Assembly (NCBI GenBank): GCA_965215675.1
Contig: OZ244112.1
Span: forward strand, 1,626,336-1,690,335
Source: Dehalococcoidia bacterium
GTDB taxonomy: Bacteria > Chloroflexota > Dehalococcoidia > Lucifugimonadales > UBA3495
DNA: 64,000 nucleotides
Direction: 5' to 3'
Part shown: in pieces, positions 48,507 through 61,160 of the stretch
Numbering within the stretch: the stretch's first letter is position 1
How the letters are laid out: each line of letters begins with the position of its first letter
Notes under the pieces: generated by a model
Databases searched by the model: none
What the model was told of the DNA's origin: nothing
What the model saw: the letters and a program-made list of their open reading frames with translations, nothing else
Position numbers and translations under genes: made by a program

Positions 48507-50825
48507 TTAGCCGTGACCGGGAGCGATGGTCTTGATAATTTCTTCGGCAGGACTCAGGCCTACCTCCACCGCACGGGCAGAGCCTTCGAACTTGGAGACG
48601 TTCACGCTTTCGCCGGTAGGGGAAATCAGTACCCGGGTCCCGGCCCACGCCAGCGTTTCCGGTCCGGCCACCCGGGTGGGCTCCAGAATTTCGGCCACGT
48701 TGGAACTCTCGGTGGCAGGTCGGTCGGTCGCGTAGGCCGATCCGTGTCGCCGTCCACCACCAAAGGGCACGCCAACTACTCCCGGAGGTGTCGCTGGTGT
48801 TGGATACGCGACTGCTCGGATGGAGCCCTGCGAAGACTCGATTCGTACGATATCACCCTCGCGGATTCCGAAGCGTTCTGCAGTGATATCGTTGAGCTCT
48901 ATCCATGTTTGCCAGGTGATCGAGGTCACCGGGTCCGGCGCTGCCTGCAGCCACGGAAGGTGGGCCAGGCTGCCGTCGTTAATCGAGTTATGTGCAAAGG
49001 GAGCCAGGTACAGGGTATTCCCCCCACCGTATCCCTGGAAAGATGGCGCCGAGGCCTTGTCCATTATTTCGCCCAGCAGTCCATCGCGAGGCAGGAGTCC
49101 TATTGGGCCGGTGGACGATTCGTCCCACCAACCACCGCGGCGCAGCAGAGTCGTCCAGAATTCGCCGGCCGTTGCTGCCTCAATCGAGCCCCGGTTCTCC
49201 TCAAACAGCGCGGTGGCGCTCTCTTTCAGCATGGCCTCGTAGTTGCGCCACGGCAACTCCTCGGCGCCAACGCCAAGGGTATCGGCTGCAGCCAGCAGTA
49301 CGTCGGGGAAGCTCCTCGGGTCCAGATCCCACAGCGGGTTCACCACGGGCTGCTGGAATCCGGCTACCTGGTACCCAGGCGCGGGGTCGGGTATGTCGTC
49401 GCCCCAGTCTTCCAGATACACCCTGTCAGGCAGCAACAGGTCGGCCATCACCGTAGTGTCGTCGATGAATGGCGAGAAACTTACAACGAACAGGTCCTGA
49501 GCGTTCAGAATGGCGTCCCGCAGCTTGAGGTAACCGGGAAGTCCGTGCACAGGGTCGACGCTGTGCAGCAGCAACATCCTTGTTTCACCGGTGCGAATCT
49601 GCTCAATCAGGCGCTCGAAGTCTTCCAGACTTGATGCGGCAGAAGTTGCAGGCACGCCTTGCCACGGGCCGTTGGGGTTGAGCCGCACGCCGCCCTTGGC
49701 ACCCACGCTGCCGACCAGCCAATTTAGCACAGCCGCCGCCTCGACGTTGAACAGACCGTTGCTGTGCGCTCCGGCTGACCCGCCCGCTATGGCGATGCTC
49801 GGGCCGTGAGTCGCAAAATTGCGGGCCAGCTTGCGAATGAATTCCGCCGGGTCGCCTCCTGCAATTTCCGAAGTCAGGCCGATATCGCTGATAACATTTT
49901 CGGGACGGTAGTTGTCCAGCCGATCCCGCCCGTTCGGGCCCAGCAGGGCGTCCACGTTGATGCCCGGAGCCTGCAGGTTCTCTTCCACGATCACCTGGGC
50001 GATGCTCAGGGCGAGATGCCCTTCCCAGCCGGGGTTTATGGGCACCCACTTGTCTGCATTGGCCGCGGTCATGGAGAATCGGGAATCAACCTGGTAAAGG
50101 GTCCCTCGTGATTCTCGTCCCTCACCCTGGCGGAATTCACCGTATCCCACCTGCCAGCGGGCCGGCGAAATCCAAGTTGACAGGAAATCCGTTCCGAACG
50201 AGATGACGATGTTGGCATTTTCCAGGTCGAGGTCGGGAAGGACGCTCTGCTGGAACACGTTCTTGGCCGCGTCCCGGTAGACGTTGTTATCGATGGCTTC
50301 GAAGGTCATGTGCTCGGCGCCCACCGCTTCAGCGAACCTGGAGGTGAGCTGACCCAGATGGCCCCTGGTAGGCTTGGTCAGCATTACTGTTCGGGAACCG
50401 CGGTCGGTCAATTGCCGGACCAGCGTTTCCATGGCCTCAGGTTCCCACTGGATGGGGTCAAACTGGCCTGAGTCCCGGTTACCGCCGCGCCGCATCGCTC
50501 CTGGTATGCGGTCGGGATGGTAAAGCGCCTGCACCCCGGCCTCGCAGCCGACGTGCGTCTTGCCCTGGTTCACGGGATACAGTGGATTGCCCTGGACCTT
50601 CTTGGCGCGGCCCTCCATTACCCTGACGAGGATTCCCTCGCAGGATGGGCATGTACGGCACAAGCTGGCGTACCAGTTGTCCTTGCCACGCACCAAGTCT
50701 TCGGGAAGGCTCACCGGGCTCTGGATGTTCAGCTCGCCCTCGCGGATGCCGAAGCCTTCACAGGCCACGGCGCCCAAGGCACCCAGACCGGCCCAAGCCA
50801 GAAAATGTCGCCTACTAAGTTTCAT
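48507..50825 (-). CDS. actB: Molybdopterin-oxidoreductase-like large subunit (ActB1) with Tat signal
   Basis: 772 aa. Twin-arginine signal SRRHFLAWAGLGALGAVA. N-terminal CRTCPSC..C cluster motif. Confidence 0.8.
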   Translation of the reverse strand: MKLSRRHFLAWAGLGALGAVACEGFGIREGELNIQSPVSLPEDLVRGKDNWYASLCRTCPSCEGILVRVMEGRAKKVQGNPLYPVNQGKTHVGCEAGVQALYHPDRIPGAMRRGGNRDSGQFDPIQWEPEAMETLVRQLTDRGSRTVMLTKPTRGHLGQLTSRFAEAVGAEHMTFEAIDNNVYRDAAKNVFQQSVLPDLDLENANIVISFGTDFLSTWISPARWQVGYGEFRQGEGRESRGTLYQVDSRFSMTAANADKWVPINPGWEGHLALSIAQVIVEENLQAPGINVDALLGPNGRDRLDNYRPENVISDIGLTSEIAGGDPAEFIRKLARNFATHGPSIAIAGGSAGAHSNGLFNVEAAAVLNWLVGSVGAKGGVRLNPNGPWQGVPATSAASSLEDFERLIEQIRTGETRMLLLHSVDPVHGLPGYLKLRDAILNAQDLFVVSFSPFIDDTTVMADLLLPDRVYLEDWGDDIPDPAPGYQVAGFQQPVVNPLWDLDPRSFPDVLLAAADTLGVGAEELPWRNYEAMLKESATALFEENRGSIEAATAGEFWTTLLRRGGWWDESSTGPIGLLPRDGLLGEIMDKASAPSFQGYGGGNTLYLAPFAHNSINDGSLAHLPWLQAAPDPVTSITWQTWIELNDITAERFGIREGDIVRIESSQGSIRAVAYPTPATPPGVVGVPFGGGRRHGSAYATDRPATESSNVAEILEPTRVAGPETLAWAGTRVLISPTGESVNVSKFEGSARAVEVGLSPAEEIIKTIAPGHG

Positions 50826-51991: not shown

Positions 51992-52300
51992 GGAGTACCG
52001 TTCACCCTGAATCCGCCCGTCCGTTGAGCCATGCTTGCCGGTCTCTGGCAAAACTTGTCCCCGCCTTCGCGGGGATTTTTGCCCTGATTCCCGCCGAACA
52101 ACACGGCGGGTCGCAAACCGAGTGAAAATTATCACAACCATTTTGGAGTGTCAAGGGGATTTAGCTTGCTATTCCCGCCTCATGGCGACGCCCGAAGGAA
52201 AGGTCTGTCCGGTCCCGCGCAGCGTGGATTGATGATCGCGGGGTATTCATTTAAGAGTACTTGGGCCAAAATAAAGGGCAGAATTCCTAGGAGGGTCCCA

Positions 52301-53752
52301 ATGCCGGCCAGGAACGGGCAACAGTACATTGACGGGCTAAAAGAAAGGCCGCCGTCCCTGTATTTGCGTGGGGAAAAGGTCAAAGACCCCACTACGCACC
52401 CAGGGCTCAGCGGCGGAGTGAAGACGCTGGCCCGTCTCTACGACCTTCAACACGATCCTGCCGTAGGTTCTGAAATGACCTACACCTCGCCTACAAGCGG
52501 CGATAAGGTGGGTCTGTCCTTCATCACCCCCAGGACCAGCGAGGATATGGACGCCCGCCACAATATGATGCGCCACTGGGCCCGCGTCAGCTGCGGAATG
52601 ATGGGTCGCACGCCCGACTTCCTCAACGTGAGCCTGATGGCAATGGCCGAGGCGGGTGATTACTTCGGCGAAGACCGGCCGGAGTTCAAGCAGAACATCC
52701 GCAATTACTACGAGAAGGTGCGAGAGGAAGACCTGGTACTCACTCACACCCTGGTGAACCTTCAGCGTAGCCGCGTGCCCACCGAGACCATTCTGCACGA
52801 CAACACCGATATCGCCCTCTCTGTGGTGAAAGAGACCGACGCCGGTATCGTTGTTCACGGGGCAAGGCTGCTGGCCACCCTGCCCATTGCTGACGAAATA
52901 GCCGTGTATCCCGCCCGATCCCACCGCCTACCGACGGGCGCACCCGGCCGCACTTCGTTCGCCTTTGCCATTTCCTGCGATGCTCCCGGCCTCAGGTTTC
53001 TCTGCCGTGAGAGCATGGACCTGGGCCGTTCCCATTTCGATCACCCCCTGGGTTCGCGATTCGAAGAGATGGACGCCTTGGCCTTCTTCGACAACGTATT
53101 CGTCCCGTGGGAGCGGGTCTTCCTTCTGGGCGACCCGGACCGCTGCAACAACATGTCGCGGCGGACCCACCAGTACCTGCATTCGGGGCACCAGGTCGTG
53201 ACCAAGAACGTGGTCAAGCTGGAGTTCGTGCTGGGTCTGGCCAACCTGATGCAGCATACCCTCGGCTCAGGCCAGCAGCCTCAGATGATGCAGATGACCG
53301 CCGAAATCATCGAGAGCCTGGAGACAACCAAGGCACTGCTGCGGTCAGCGGAGGCAGATGCCGCTCTTGATGAGTGGGGAGTCCTCTGCCCAGCCGAAAT
53401 GCCGCTGACCGTGGCCCGGCACCTTTTCATCCGGATGTACCCCAGGATGGGCGAGATACTGCAGTTGATGGGTTCCAGCAGCCTGATGGCCCTGCCCACA
53501 GAGGCGGACCTGAAGGGGCCGCTGGCCGATGAGCTGGCCAGCTACCTGGACACCGACACGGCGACGGCCGAGGACAGGGTGCGCCTCTTCCGCTTGGCCT
53601 GGGACACCTGCTGCAGTGCGTTCGGATCTCGGCAGATCCTCTACGAACGCTTCTTCCAGGGCGACGTCTACCGAAATGTTGTGCTTCTCAACAGCTTGTA
53701 TGACAAGGAGCCCGCCACGGCCTTCGTACGCGAGTTCCTGGAAGGTGGCTGA
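52301..53752 (+). CDS. HpaB-family flavin-dependent oxygenase component, paralogue 2
   Basis: Start MPARNGQQYIDGLKE at 52301 behind SD TAGGAGGG. About two-thirds identical by eye to 19391-20845 over the N-terminal 60 residues and collinear throughout. Confidence 0.8.
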   Translation: MPARNGQQYIDGLKERPPSLYLRGEKVKDPTTHPGLSGGVKTLARLYDLQHDPAVGSEMTYTSPTSGDKVGLSFITPRTSEDMDARHNMMRHWARVSCGMMGRTPDFLNVSLMAMAEAGDYFGEDRPEFKQNIRNYYEKVREEDLVLTHTLVNLQRSRVPTETILHDNTDIALSVVKETDAGIVVHGARLLATLPIADEIAVYPARSHRLPTGAPGRTSFAFAISCDAPGLRFLCRESMDLGRSHFDHPLGSRFEEMDALAFFDNVFVPWERVFLLGDPDRCNNMSRRTHQYLHSGHQVVTKNVVKLEFVLGLANLMQHTLGSGQQPQMMQMTAEIIESLETTKALLRSAEADAALDEWGVLCPAEMPLTVARHLFIRMYPRMGEILQLMGSSSLMALPTEADLKGPLADELASYLDTDTATAEDRVRLFRLAWDTCCSAFGSRQILYERFFQGDVYRNVVLLNSLYDKEPATAFVREFLEGG

Positions 53753-56318: not shown

Positions 56319-56822
56319 CTACCCAGCGGCTTCGCCTTCTTCCTGGCGCCGACGGTTTTCCCGAGACTGTATTGCGTAAATCACCTCGTCCGAGGCCATT
56401 CGACCCACCGGGCCAGAGGCATACATCGAGCCGAGGACCACTCCGCCGCGACCCAGCAGGAATTCTGCTGGCTGGACAAACCCGCCCCGGTCGTCCGACC
56501 ACCAGGCGCCGATGATGTCGGCGTCGGCCTGGGTCGCCCCGTAGGCCACTGGGAAGGAAAGGCCCTTGCCCTGCACCTCCCGGGCATGCTCCTCATTGTC
56601 AGTGCTGACGGCGTAGACGGTCACGTCCAGCGCGTCCAGTTCCGCCTTGGCTGCCTCGTATGCGGCCAACTGCCGCTGGCAGTACGGTCACCAGTGGCCC
56701 CGGTAAAACAACAGTGCGGTGTAGCGGCTGGGCGCATCCCCCGGCAGCGAGATAGTCCCGCCTTCCAGCAGCTTCAAATCCAATTGAGGGAACCTTCCCC
56801 CCTGCTGCAACATTTCACCCAT
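56319..56822 (-). CDS. Redoxin/AhpC-TSA (Prx-like) thiol-disulfide oxidoreductase with in-frame UGA at the catalytic position (candidate selenoprotein, U-x-x-C)
   Basis: ATG 56822 lies behind SD GAGAGGG. The frame reads MGEMLQQGGRFPQLDLKLLEGGTISLPGDAPSRYTALLFYRGHW-TGA(56688-56690)-PYCQRQLAAYEAAKAELDALDVTVYAVSTDN.. in one frame to TAG 56319 (167 codons plus stop). The ORF track lists only the part after the TGA. Confidence 0.65.
56647..56687 (-). promoter_or_regulatory. Candidate SECIS-like hairpins immediately 3' of the UGA
   Basis: The mRNA reads UGA CCGU-ACUGCC-AGC-GGCAGU-UGG (6-bp stem extendable by CC/GG). It is followed by UUGGC-C-GC-AUACGAG-GC-A-GCCAA. Confidence 0.35.
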
Positions 56823-56850
56823 ATCAACCCTCTCGTCATTTAGTGTTGAA

Positions 56851-56859
56851 AGTATACCA
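56851..56859 (-). promoter_or_regulatory. Extended -10 element TGGTATACT upstream of the Prx-like gene
   Basis: Reverse complement of agtatacca, about 29 nt upstream of ATG 56822. Confidence 0.35.
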
Positions 56860-57235
56860 GCGCATCACGTAACGTCCGGCAGACAATCCGGTTCGCAGCT
56901 ATGGAAAGAAGGCTGTTGAGCCACCTGTCCCGCGAACAGGAGTGGTCTCAGAGTGTATTTGCGCACGTGGGTTAGATTCAAGCACCCCGGCAATTACGGC
57001 GGCGCACTGTTATGGGGGAGGTCCGGGCCCCGACTGTGCCGGAGTCTACAGCTTTCACCGGAGCGGCGGGTTGGCAGAGCCGCAACCCAGATCCATCCCG
57101 AAAAGGACACCCCCGTAAAATGTATGACATTCCGTGCCATTGTGAGACATTTTGCAAAAAATGAGGTCTCCATTGGACACTTTGCTGTCGCCGCAAGGCG
57201 CCTCAAGAGAGATGCTGGAGGGCCGTCTGTGAATA

Positions 57236-57275
57236 GGAAAATATTCAATTTCCCGCTCATATCCGCTCATTTCCC
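57236..57275. repeat. Intergenic repeat element, copy B (two GCTCAT half-sites 10 nt apart)
   Basis: ggaaaatattcaatttccCGCTCATATCCGCTCATTTCCc. It shares identical blocks with 18992-19023. Confidence 0.6.
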
Positions 57276-57398
57276 ACCAGAATTACAGAAATTGCAGATT
57301 CCGAGGGAAGTAGGAACGCCGAGGCACAAAAAGAGCATGGAGAGAACATACATTCGATTCTATCCGGCTGCCACCCCATTGGCAAGAATTGATTGTCA

Positions 57399-57409
57399 GG
57401 AAATGAGCG
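57399..57409. repeat. Inverted partner (GGAAATGAGCG) of the copy-B half-site
   Basis: Perfect 11-nt reverse complement of 57264-57274, located 124 nt away. Confidence 0.5.
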
Positions 57410-57578
57410 TTTCGTCGGGGCTGGTCGAACCATCCAGACGGCTCGCAGATGCTTCCTCTGGCTGTGGTTGGCACACTTCCGCAGAATTTCGCTCTCGGGC
57501 AGGTCGAAGGCGGCCTTGTCGAGCAAAAAAGAGTTACAAGCAGGTACTCCACCGAATTGAAGCGTTACCAGCCGCTGG

Positions 57579-58088
57579 CTAGACAGCCTGGTATACGCTG
57601 TTCCTGGCTTTGGCCGTCTTTCGCAGTCTCTTCTGGGATTCCAGAGAACGGACTGCCTGTTGCACCCGGGGATTTCCGTACCGCCGGAACTGCCCAACTA
57701 TCCTGGCCAGCGTTTTCGGCTGCTCGCAGTAGTCCCATACCAGTTCGCAAAGGGCGGCGTCCCCACCTGGCAGGGGAAACTTGGGAGTGACCATGGTGAA
57801 CCCGGGATTGACGCTGATCTTCTCCCCAGGCGTGAATTCCAGCCTGCCGTCGTGCTTCTCAAGGAACTTCCGGAACCTGGTGCGGAGAATTCCGGGCCCC
57901 CCGGTCGAGCCGTAGCCGTGGACTACCCTGAGAAGGCGGCAGGTGTGGCCGCCGGGCTGCACAGCCTTGTTGTAGGCGTCAACGAACTCTTGCAGGGCCT
58001 CGGGCCACGTCTTGCCGTGCAGGTCCAGTTCCTGGGTATCCAATGCTCCCCTCGTTCCGGTCAAGTACGAATTCCAGCACAGGCGCAT
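57579..58088 (-). CDS. Smr-domain protein with C-terminal winged-helix-like region
   Basis: ELDLHGKTWPEALQEFV..LLRVVHGYGSTGGPGILR is the Smr signature. Start uncertain (ATG 58088 or 58160). The longer listed ORF overlaps the divergent MBL gene. Confidence 0.6.
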   Translation of the reverse strand: MRLCWNSYLTGTRGALDTQELDLHGKTWPEALQEFVDAYNKAVQPGGHTCRLLRVVHGYGSTGGPGILRTRFRKFLEKHDGRLEFTPGEKISVNPGFTMVTPKFPLPGGDAALCELVWDYCEQPKTLARIVGQFRRYGNPRVQQAVRSLESQKRLRKTAKARNSVYQAV

Positions 58089-59981: not shown

Positions 59982-61160
59982 CTACTCTTCTCGCTGTGCC
60001 TCGTACTCTCGCAGGGCGGGGATGACCTCCTGCGTCATCAGGTCGATGCTGCGAACCGCAACGTCGTGGGACATCGGGCCCTCGCGGCCCCAGAAGATTA
60101 CATAGCCGGGGTCAATAATATCGATCAGGTGCTTCATCTTTTTGATGACCGTGTCCGGGTTGCCCGTCACTATCTGATAGGTCTCCTGGGCGTCGTCGTA
60201 GGGCAGCACCGGGCCGCCGGGTACGGCGGTCTGCACCGCTCGGCGGGCCTGCTCCCGGGGGCCGGTGGAGGCCGCACGGGTCAGGTAGCCCGGCGGTGCC
60301 AGCCAGTGGTTGGGAGTGACGCCGAAGGACGTGCCCAACTGCCAGTAGAAGTTCTTGCCTTCCTCGTAGGCCTTTTCGTCGGTGTCGGCCACGTTCACCC
60401 GCACCGCGTAGCCGCGATGCTGCGGCGTGGGCGACCACCCGTCGGCCTCAGCGGTGTTCTGGTAAAGCTGGTAGATGTCTGACAGCAACTGCAGAGGCGG
60501 AGCGAGGGCCACATAGGGATACTGGTGCTTGGCCGCCCAGATCACCGACTCCGGAGAGGCCACTCCCGGGATCCAGATGGGCGGGTGAGGCTTCTGCAGC
60601 GGCATCACCCAGGGGTTGACCACCCGGTAGTGGTAGTGCTTGCCCTCGTGGCGGAAGGGACCGGGCTTGGTCCACGCATCCACGATTACGTTGTGGGCTT
60701 CGTCGAAGCGCTCGCGATTGTAGAGCGGGTTGGTGTTGGTGGCCATGCTTTCCTGGCCGATGCCTCGCACGAAACCGCACACTACGCGCCCGCCCGACAG
60801 GATGTCGATCATCGCGATTTCCTCGGCGATGCGCAGGGGGTTTTCGTGGATGGGCAGCACGTTGCCCAGGAACACGATTTTGCCCTGCTTGGTGCGGGAG
60901 GCCAGCACGGAACCAATGACGTTGACCGACGGCATCATGCACAGCGGGTTGTTGTGATGCTCGTTGATCATCACGCCGTCGAACCCAGCCTCGGTGCAGT
61001 ACTGCAGCTCGTCGAAGTACATGCTGTACAGTTCCTGCGCCGTTTCGGGGCTGAAGTGCTCATTCGGATACATCAGGTTGTTGTAGCCGAGACGCTTTGC
61101 CTCGTCCTGCGGGTAGGCGGTGTACCCCATCTCGGTAAAGAAGAAAAACTCTCGATTCAT
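59982..61160 (-). CDS. LLM-class flavin-dependent (luciferase-like) oxidoreductase
   Basis: 392 aa with TIM-barrel LLM-like sequence (..GFDGVMINEHH..FLGNVLPIHENPLRIAEE..). Confidence 0.75.
   Translation of the reverse strand: MNREFFFFTEMGYTAYPQDEAKRLGYNNLMYPNEHFSPETAQELYSMYFDELQYCTEAGFDGVMINEHHNNPLCMMPSVNVIGSVLASRTKQGKIVFLGNVLPIHENPLRIAEEIAMIDILSGGRVVCGFVRGIGQESMATNTNPLYNRERFDEAHNVIVDAWTKPGPFRHEGKHYHYRVVNPWVMPLQKPHPPIWIPGVASPESVIWAAKHQYPYVALAPPLQLLSDIYQLYQNTAEADGWSPTPQHRGYAVRVNVADTDEKAYEEGKNFYWQLGTSFGVTPNHWLAPPGYLTRAASTGPREQARRAVQTAVPGGPVLPYDDAQETYQIVTGNPDTVIKKMKHLIDIIDPGYVIFWGREGPMSHDVAVRSIDLMTQEVIPALREYEAQREE

Follow-up and report, generated by a model that had tools for sequence, protein, structure and literature searches.

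A peroxiredoxin-like gene of Dehalococcoidia, split in annotation at an in-frame UGA, very probably encodes a selenoprotein with a U-x-x-C redox centre

What does a UGA codon mean when it interrupts an otherwise continuous redoxin reading frame at a position where distant homologues carry cysteine? The question is raised by a minus-strand locus in the window, i.e., the whole 64,000-nt stretch of DNA analyzed here, which comes from a SAR202-like Dehalococcoidia bacterium of marine or sponge-type origin. The ORF list of the window shows at this place just a TTG-started ORF of 116 aa (56319–56669, −), as the initial annotation had reported. Reading the same frame from 56822 to 56319 reveals a complete gene of 167 codons plus TAG (56321–56319), which starts with ATG (56822–56820) 5 nt after the Shine–Dalgarno (SD)-like sequence GAGAGGG (56834–56828). 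Its sole internal stop is the TGA at codon 45 (56690–56688), which stands within GHW-U-PY-C as the first residue of a U-P-Y-C redox motif; the conceptual translation runs MGEMLQQ...ALLFYRGHW*PYCQRQL.... The ATG with a good SD sequence, the 44 residues ending in ALLFYRGHW, the single TGA followed by PYCQRQL, and the joined length of 167 aa were all present as first described. When the in-frame TGAs of the window were scored by the codon usage of both flanks, this one ranked first of all. We conclude with high confidence that 56822–56319 (−) is one intact gene for a 167-residue selenoprotein of peroxiredoxin (Prx) fold with a U45-P-Y-C48 centre, codon 45 being read as selenocysteine (Sec).

Profile searches agreed with the earlier assignment of the product to the redoxin/AhpC family. 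With Cys substituted for the stop, the product matches PF00578 (AhpC-TSA; E = 3.8e-18, 66 bits against a gathering cut-off of 26 bits, residues 9–129) as well as PF08534 (Redoxin). The placement of the UGA at the first Cys of a W-C-x-x-C motif also holds, with one refinement: the counterpart of the peroxidatic Cys is C48, not position 45. When phmmer aligns the protein to the solved Prx 6khx, the peroxidatic Cys of FVCPTE is matched by C48 and the Thr by position 45; in the alignment to a tryparedoxin-like thioredoxin, the motif falls on WCPPC instead. Sec45 accordingly stands at the first, thioredoxin-type Cys of CxxC, opposite the Thr of the Prx PxxxTxxC signature, and its partner Cys48 (codon 56681–56679, −) is invariant across all homologues. 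The AlphaFold model of a 58%-identical Cys homologue (P0014, pLDDT 91) displays a Prx/BCP fold, with a TM-score of ~0.8 to Bcp4, AhpC2 and Prx6 and the CxxC at the N-terminus of helix 46–57. The protein therefore combines a Prx scaffold with a thioredoxin-type U-x-x-C centre and does not belong to the TxxU selenoperoxiredoxins.

A scan of species-representative genomes yielded 35 loci (L001–L035), from Dehalococcoidia/SAR202/Chloroflexota metagenome-assembled genomes (MAGs), all of which share the full-length frame and the conserved MGEMLQQG... N-terminus. An SD-like motif (GGAGG-like or GGAG-like) is found at a similar place before the ATG in most of the orthologues. Codon 45 is TGA, never TAA or TAG, in the window and all of these loci (36/36), and two JGI contigs bring the count to 38/38. 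At the protein level the family is met largely in truncated form: dozens of the nearest database proteins (70–96% identical) are 100–120-aa fragments covering the last 68% of the query, with the truncation at 113–116 aa recurring among them, and the full-length database relatives are more distant than the fragments. Four JGI 'peroxiredoxin' proteins (P0001–P0004) read GHWWPYC. The DNA of the two examined (L073:462–956 and L074:841–1338) has TGA at this site, and the printed W is an artefact that stems from the translation table applied to them.

Distant homologues carry Cys. The motif GHWCP(Y/L)C occupies the aligned site in L036–L039, P0005, P0014, P0048 and others, whose carriers are other Chloroflexota, Thermomicrobiales and Hellea. 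The column thus holds either TGA (window, L001–L035, L073 and L074) or Cys, which is the outcome that the initial annotation had proposed to look for. In a neighbor-joining tree, the TGA forms all group in a single clade, and P0005 and P0014, both Cys forms, branch off successively as its sisters; this topology fits a single Cys-to-Sec change kept ever since. Selection was assessed on a codon alignment of 37 sequences, which served for both dN/dS and codon entropy. Synonymous sites are near saturation (pooled pS 0.54), and the median dN/dS is 0.161 over the 44 codons before the TGA versus 0.156 after it. The equality of the two values indicates that the upstream part is translated and selected like the downstream part. 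No further stops or frameshifts occur in 37/38 copies. A check for TGC in close relatives, or for signs of decay, had likewise been proposed; no TGC was found, and the dN/dS ratios on the two sides of the TGA speak for an intact gene.

The next line of evidence comes from the RNA. The 69 nt around the TGA were aligned across 36 sequences, with no indels, and columns 22–29 and 31–34 are invariant (CGGCAGUU-GCCG). RNAalifold finds a nested hairpin here that agrees with manual reading of the alignment, and on the grounds of its consensus fold, pair counts and frozen codons we predict it to be a bacterial SECIS element (56682–56651, −). The lower stem pairs CUGCC (56682–56678) with GGCAG (56655–56651), the upper stem pairs GCGGC (56676–56672) with GCCGC (56666–56662), and the apical loop AGUUG (56671–56667) is separated from the UGA by 16 nt. 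Across the 36 sequences, the upper stem is paired in 100% of the alignment cells. At its outer pair, 30 sequences have G-C and 6 have U-A, a compensatory change that may represent a single evolutionary event. The fifth upper-stem pair is mismatched in the two JGI sequences (G.A, A.C), which leaves a 4-bp stem.

Published criteria for bacterial SECIS elements (bSECIS) are a loop of 3–9 nt, an upper stem of 4–16 bp, a distance of 16–37 nt from the UGA and a minimum free energy of −7.5 kcal/mol or lower, with G occurring within the first two loop nucleotides and G or U usually coming next (PMC13188914). The hairpin agrees with all four constraints, having a 5-nt loop with G at position 2 and U next to it, a 5-bp stem, a 16-nt spacing that is the lower limit of the range, and energies of −9.7 kcal/mol (upper hairpin) and −15.1 kcal/mol (nested structure). 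A descriptor composed of TGA, spacing, stem and AGUUR loop matches the gene in 36/36 sequences and only one other site in ~0.8 Mb. The upper hairpin belongs to the local minimum-energy fold in 35/38 TGA forms and is stable in none of the four Cys homologues evaluated.

Codon choice within the element is equally constrained. R50 (CGG), Q51 (CAG) and A53 (GCC) are invariant in 37/37 sequences and are the only zero-entropy codons among ~95 conserved degenerate codons. L52 is exclusively TTG or TTA (the latter in 8/37), though the gene otherwise mostly uses CTG for Leu. In the Cys homologue L075, the peptide CQRQLAA is likewise present but is specified by TGT CAA AGG CAG CTC GCG GCG, with which the hairpin is impossible; the nucleotide constraint is therefore tied to the TGA and not to the protein. 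Conservation of a hairpin in orthologues, a further check suggested at the outset, was in this way obtained independently by RNAalifold, and the synonymous sites of the hairpin are frozen only where TGA is present. The element also bears on the annotation itself, since the TTG at 56669–56667, which encodes Leu52 and serves as the caller's start of the 116-aa piece, is the UUG of the apical loop, a detail that accounts for the split.

The initial annotation had noted stable hairpins starting within a few nucleotides 3' of the UGA, where it expected a SECIS. Hairpins are indeed present, but the window region folded alone shows no excess stability over dinucleotide shuffles (z = +0.06 and −0.24), and the real candidate is the nested hairpin whose loop begins 16 nt after the UGA. 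The evidence for the element is cross-genome comparison rather than thermodynamics. Rfam returned no SECIS or other credible match, either for the whole window at the gathering threshold or in a permissive search around the site. An alternative hairpin directly after the UGA, CUGCC-AGC-GGCAG with an extension, is ~95% paired and competes for the same bases. It has no two-sided changes and no excess over shuffles, and its loop, ~10 nt from the UGA, lies outside the bSECIS range; we treated it as a competing or incidental fold. The initial annotation had named four tests capable of refuting a selenoprotein. The three run here, concerning Cys or Sec at the column, the conserved hairpin, and TGC or decay in close relatives, were all passed, and the interpretation as a selenoprotein is strongly supported.

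Some orthologues depart from the common form of the gene. In-frame insertions lie in surface regions, PASDQTGR or PPSNETGR at codons about 110–117 (L008, L024) and PFGSGS or ESDQRHA at codons about 19–25 (L013, L024); the TGA and the SECIS are unaffected in all three. The orthologue in a complete-chromosome MAG (L035:10001–10469) keeps the TGA and the SECIS and carries a frameshift after ~codon 89 (...KGLSLSGSVRGDQ...), which is either real decay or a long-read homopolymer error.

Sec machinery was sought around the gene and in published surveys of the lineage. ARAGORN found no tRNA-Sec in the 64-kb window or the 35 loci. A tblastn search with the E. coli proteins found no selA, selB or selD in the window or the 20-kb flanks of the relatives (1.3 Mb), the only hits being two weak GTPase matches, both in unrelated alphaproteobacterial loci. 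Evidence for the lineage comes from BSepDB, a database that admits only species with SelA, SelB and SelD, whose ten most selenoprotein-rich bacteria include Dehalococcoidia bacterium UBA1141 with 49 genes and Dehalococcoidia bacterium 10f4566d-ab44-49ae-b774-fc9f760c6436 with 46 genes (PMC13326102). These two genomes are those of loci L034 and L033, respectively, the most divergent carriers of the TGA form. SelA, SelB and SelD COGs were also present in all five sponge SAR202 bins (Slaby et al. 2017, PMC5649159). Together, the BSepDB genomes and the sponge COGs provide good indirect evidence for a Sec trait in the clade.

Other selenoprotein genes were searched for in the window and the loci by conserved syntenic TGA, by the SECIS descriptor and by codon usage, and only the Prx-like gene stands out. 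The other conserved TGAs were ordinary stops or lay antisense or off-frame to real genes. A crude scan for CxxU/UxxC motifs returned 102 matches, the noise being too high in GC-rich DNA. The window also encodes a 772-aa molybdopterin oxidoreductase (48507–50825, −; PF00384, PF01568, PF04879), which has no in-frame TGA; its superfamily includes FdhA, the commonest bacterial selenoprotein.

Three other explanations for the TGA were weighed. It could be a single nonsense mutation, TGC to TGA, in a Cys-type redoxin gene, with the 116-aa ORF as a pseudogene remnant. Only one base separates TGC or TGT from TGA, gene callers and NCBI give only a truncated 'hypothetical protein', and the relative L035 is frameshifted further downstream. 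Such a lesion is, however, difficult to reconcile with a TGA kept in 38 sequences at near-saturated synonymous divergence, with the absence of other stops and frameshifts in 37 of these copies, and with an ATG and 44 N-terminal residues that are conserved in all copies, mostly behind an SD-like motif. The equal dN/dS on both sides of the TGA excludes a pseudogene, and we consider its probability negligible. Alternatively, the locus might make two products, a 44-residue leader peptide ending at the UGA and a separate 116-aa protein started from the TTG at 56669, exactly the call that ORF callers make in dozens of genomes. The TTG is Leu52, however, and the TTA that replaces it in 8/37 orthologues is no start codon; TTG 56669 is therefore not a conserved start. 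In Cys homologues the fold runs uninterrupted through the TGA position, and the resulting fragment would be without its three N-terminal beta-strands and its first redox residue; the upstream 44 codons align residue by residue with the N-termini of full-length Cys homologues. Two separate products are, in our view, extremely unlikely.

The remaining explanation is that the UGA is read as a standard amino acid, either Trp (near-cognate reading or an alternative code) or Cys (through a SelB-dependent, tRNA-Sec-like tRNA-Cys). In its favour, some bacteria are reported to use tRNA-Sec-like tRNAs to insert Cys at UGA, W is what the JGI gene calls show for this codon, and no Sec machinery was seen in the 64-kb window. 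Against global reassignment, 15 of the window's 38 long ORFs, the next two genes downstream among them, end at TGA as an ordinary stop, and the code is therefore not reassigned. A Trp would abolish function at this site, which in the CxxC centre holds the nucleophilic Cys. Moreover, a hairpin with the properties of a SECIS is selected only in TGA-bearing genes, and two genomes carrying orthologues are documented Sec users with 46–49 selenoproteins. We regard decoding as Trp or Cys as very unlikely and retain Sec as the meaning of codon 45.

The genomic context adds a conserved partner. As the initial annotation had proposed, a DinB/MDMPI-like gene comes next on the same strand, 62 nt after the selenoprotein stop; it encodes 272 aa (56256–55438, −) and belongs to the mycothiol-type maleylpyruvate isomerase family (PF11716, 83 bits; TIGR03083, 126 bits). 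It is found immediately downstream in 34/35 related loci, and the Cys-form loci have no DinB/MDMPI neighbour. No minus-strand terminator-like site was found in the 62-nt gap, and judging by this layout the two genes are probably co-transcribed. The usual gene order is Smr, PrxU-like, DinB/MDMPI, MFS transporter and HpaB-like monooxygenase. The only relative without the DinB/MDMPI gene is L026 (299–2312), which has an HpaB-like monooxygenase homologue directly after the selenoprotein gene.

In the window, the spacer between Smr and the selenoprotein gene (56823–57578) measures 756 nt, compared with roughly 70–190 nt in most relatives that keep Smr. The additional DNA resembles none of the 35 related loci and has a GC content of 0.50–0.56, versus 0.60–0.67 for the flanking genes; its longest ORF (56953–57582, +) has no Pfam match. 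It may be what is left of an insertion, or else a non-coding element. The locus is flanked by an HpaB-like flavin monooxygenase (52148–53752, +) and a luciferase-like monooxygenase (59982–61160, −). SAR202 genomes typically carry flavin-dependent monooxygenases of this kind, in agreement with the taxonomic placement.

How such a protein might be made and used can be sketched as follows. During translation, the UGA at codon 45 would be decoded as Sec, with the SECIS hairpin inside the coding sequence recruiting SelB and Sec-tRNASec in competition with release factor 2. The protein would most likely cycle between a selenol/thiol state and a U45-C48 selenenylsulfide, as its motif suggests, and could thereby act as a thiol-disulfide oxidoreductase or as a thiol-dependent reductase or peroxidase. 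It probably works with the adjoining DinB/MDMPI thiol-dependent enzyme, to which the conserved gene order points. A bolder and rather doubtful proposal is that the gene pair represents an uncharacterised Se-dependent low-molecular-weight-thiol pathway specific to SAR202-type Dehalococcoidia, and that the compact, minimal-spacing, AGUUR-loop SECIS represents a lineage-specific class of SelB recognition. One example would be a selenol reductase that recycles or deconjugates what a DinB-type S-transferase or isomerase produces. Its setting might be the oxidative breakdown of recalcitrant aromatic compounds, given the HpaB-like and luciferase-like monooxygenases and the MFS transporter nearby.

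The case exposes a recurring annotation error, a 100–120-aa fragment or a spurious Trp, in dozens of Dehalococcoidia/SAR202 genomes and metagenomes, where the sole named copy is labelled 'hypothetical protein'. With this gene, the number of selenoproteins rises by one in a lineage that is now reported to belong to the bacteria richest in them. The lineage also gains a well-supported SECIS example, in which 38 sequences and their frozen synonymous sites are set against a Cys-form control; this example could help to find further selenoprotein genes there. The conserved DinB/MDMPI link, in turn, offers a concrete, testable hint on function.

Comparison with known systems places both the RNA element and the protein. 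Like the bSECISearch consensus and the E. coli fdhF SECIS, the hairpin lies in the coding region after the UGA and has a small loop with G followed by U on a stem of at least 4 bp. It differs from the bSECIS archetype in its spacing at the 16-nt limit, its 5-bp upper stem and its asymmetric 1 x 6 internal loop, and it presumably has no sequence similarity to the fdhF element. Among proteins, PrxU (NF040737) shares the Prx fold and an active-site Sec. In PrxU, however, Sec replaces the peroxidatic Cys (TxxU), whereas the Sec of the window protein stands three residues earlier and the Cys at the peroxidatic position is kept; with 22.7 bits against a cut-off of 270, the protein is not a PrxU member. 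SelL-related NF040769 and eukaryotic SelL (UxxU) likewise have a Prx-like thioredoxin fold with a Sec redox motif, but the motif here is UxxC, not UxxU, and a score of 21.3 bits against a cut-off of 120 places the protein outside that family. The CxxC-type PRX_like2 proteins (CDD cd02970) are built on a Prx scaffold with CxxC in place of the PxxxTxxC triad, their second Cys being the counterpart of the peroxidatic one. Compared at the level of this description, the arrangement in the 6khx alignment is the same, except that the first Cys is Sec.

The closest counterpart is the group of Prx-like UxxC selenoproteins of PF00578, reported since 2004–2005 from marine metagenomes under the names 'Prx-like protein' (Sargasso Sea selenoproteome) and 'Prx-like 1' (GOS selenoproteome), and listed as 'predicted with high confidence' in a 2026 review; WP_010940744.1 is one of the published representatives. 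Shared features are PF00578 membership, UxxC replacing the TxxU of Sec-peroxiredoxins, occurrence in marine bacteria, common Cys homologues and a SECIS hairpin right after the UGA; the likeness is one of Pfam family, motif and description and makes the gene a putative member of the same subfamily. The gene is a real selenoprotein gene that annotation has split in error; its family has been known for two decades, and conceptually it offers nothing new. What sets its clade apart from that family is its restriction to Dehalococcoidia/SAR202, a conserved C-terminal basic-acidic helix (RENRRRQEEGE) and the link to the DinB/MDMPI gene.
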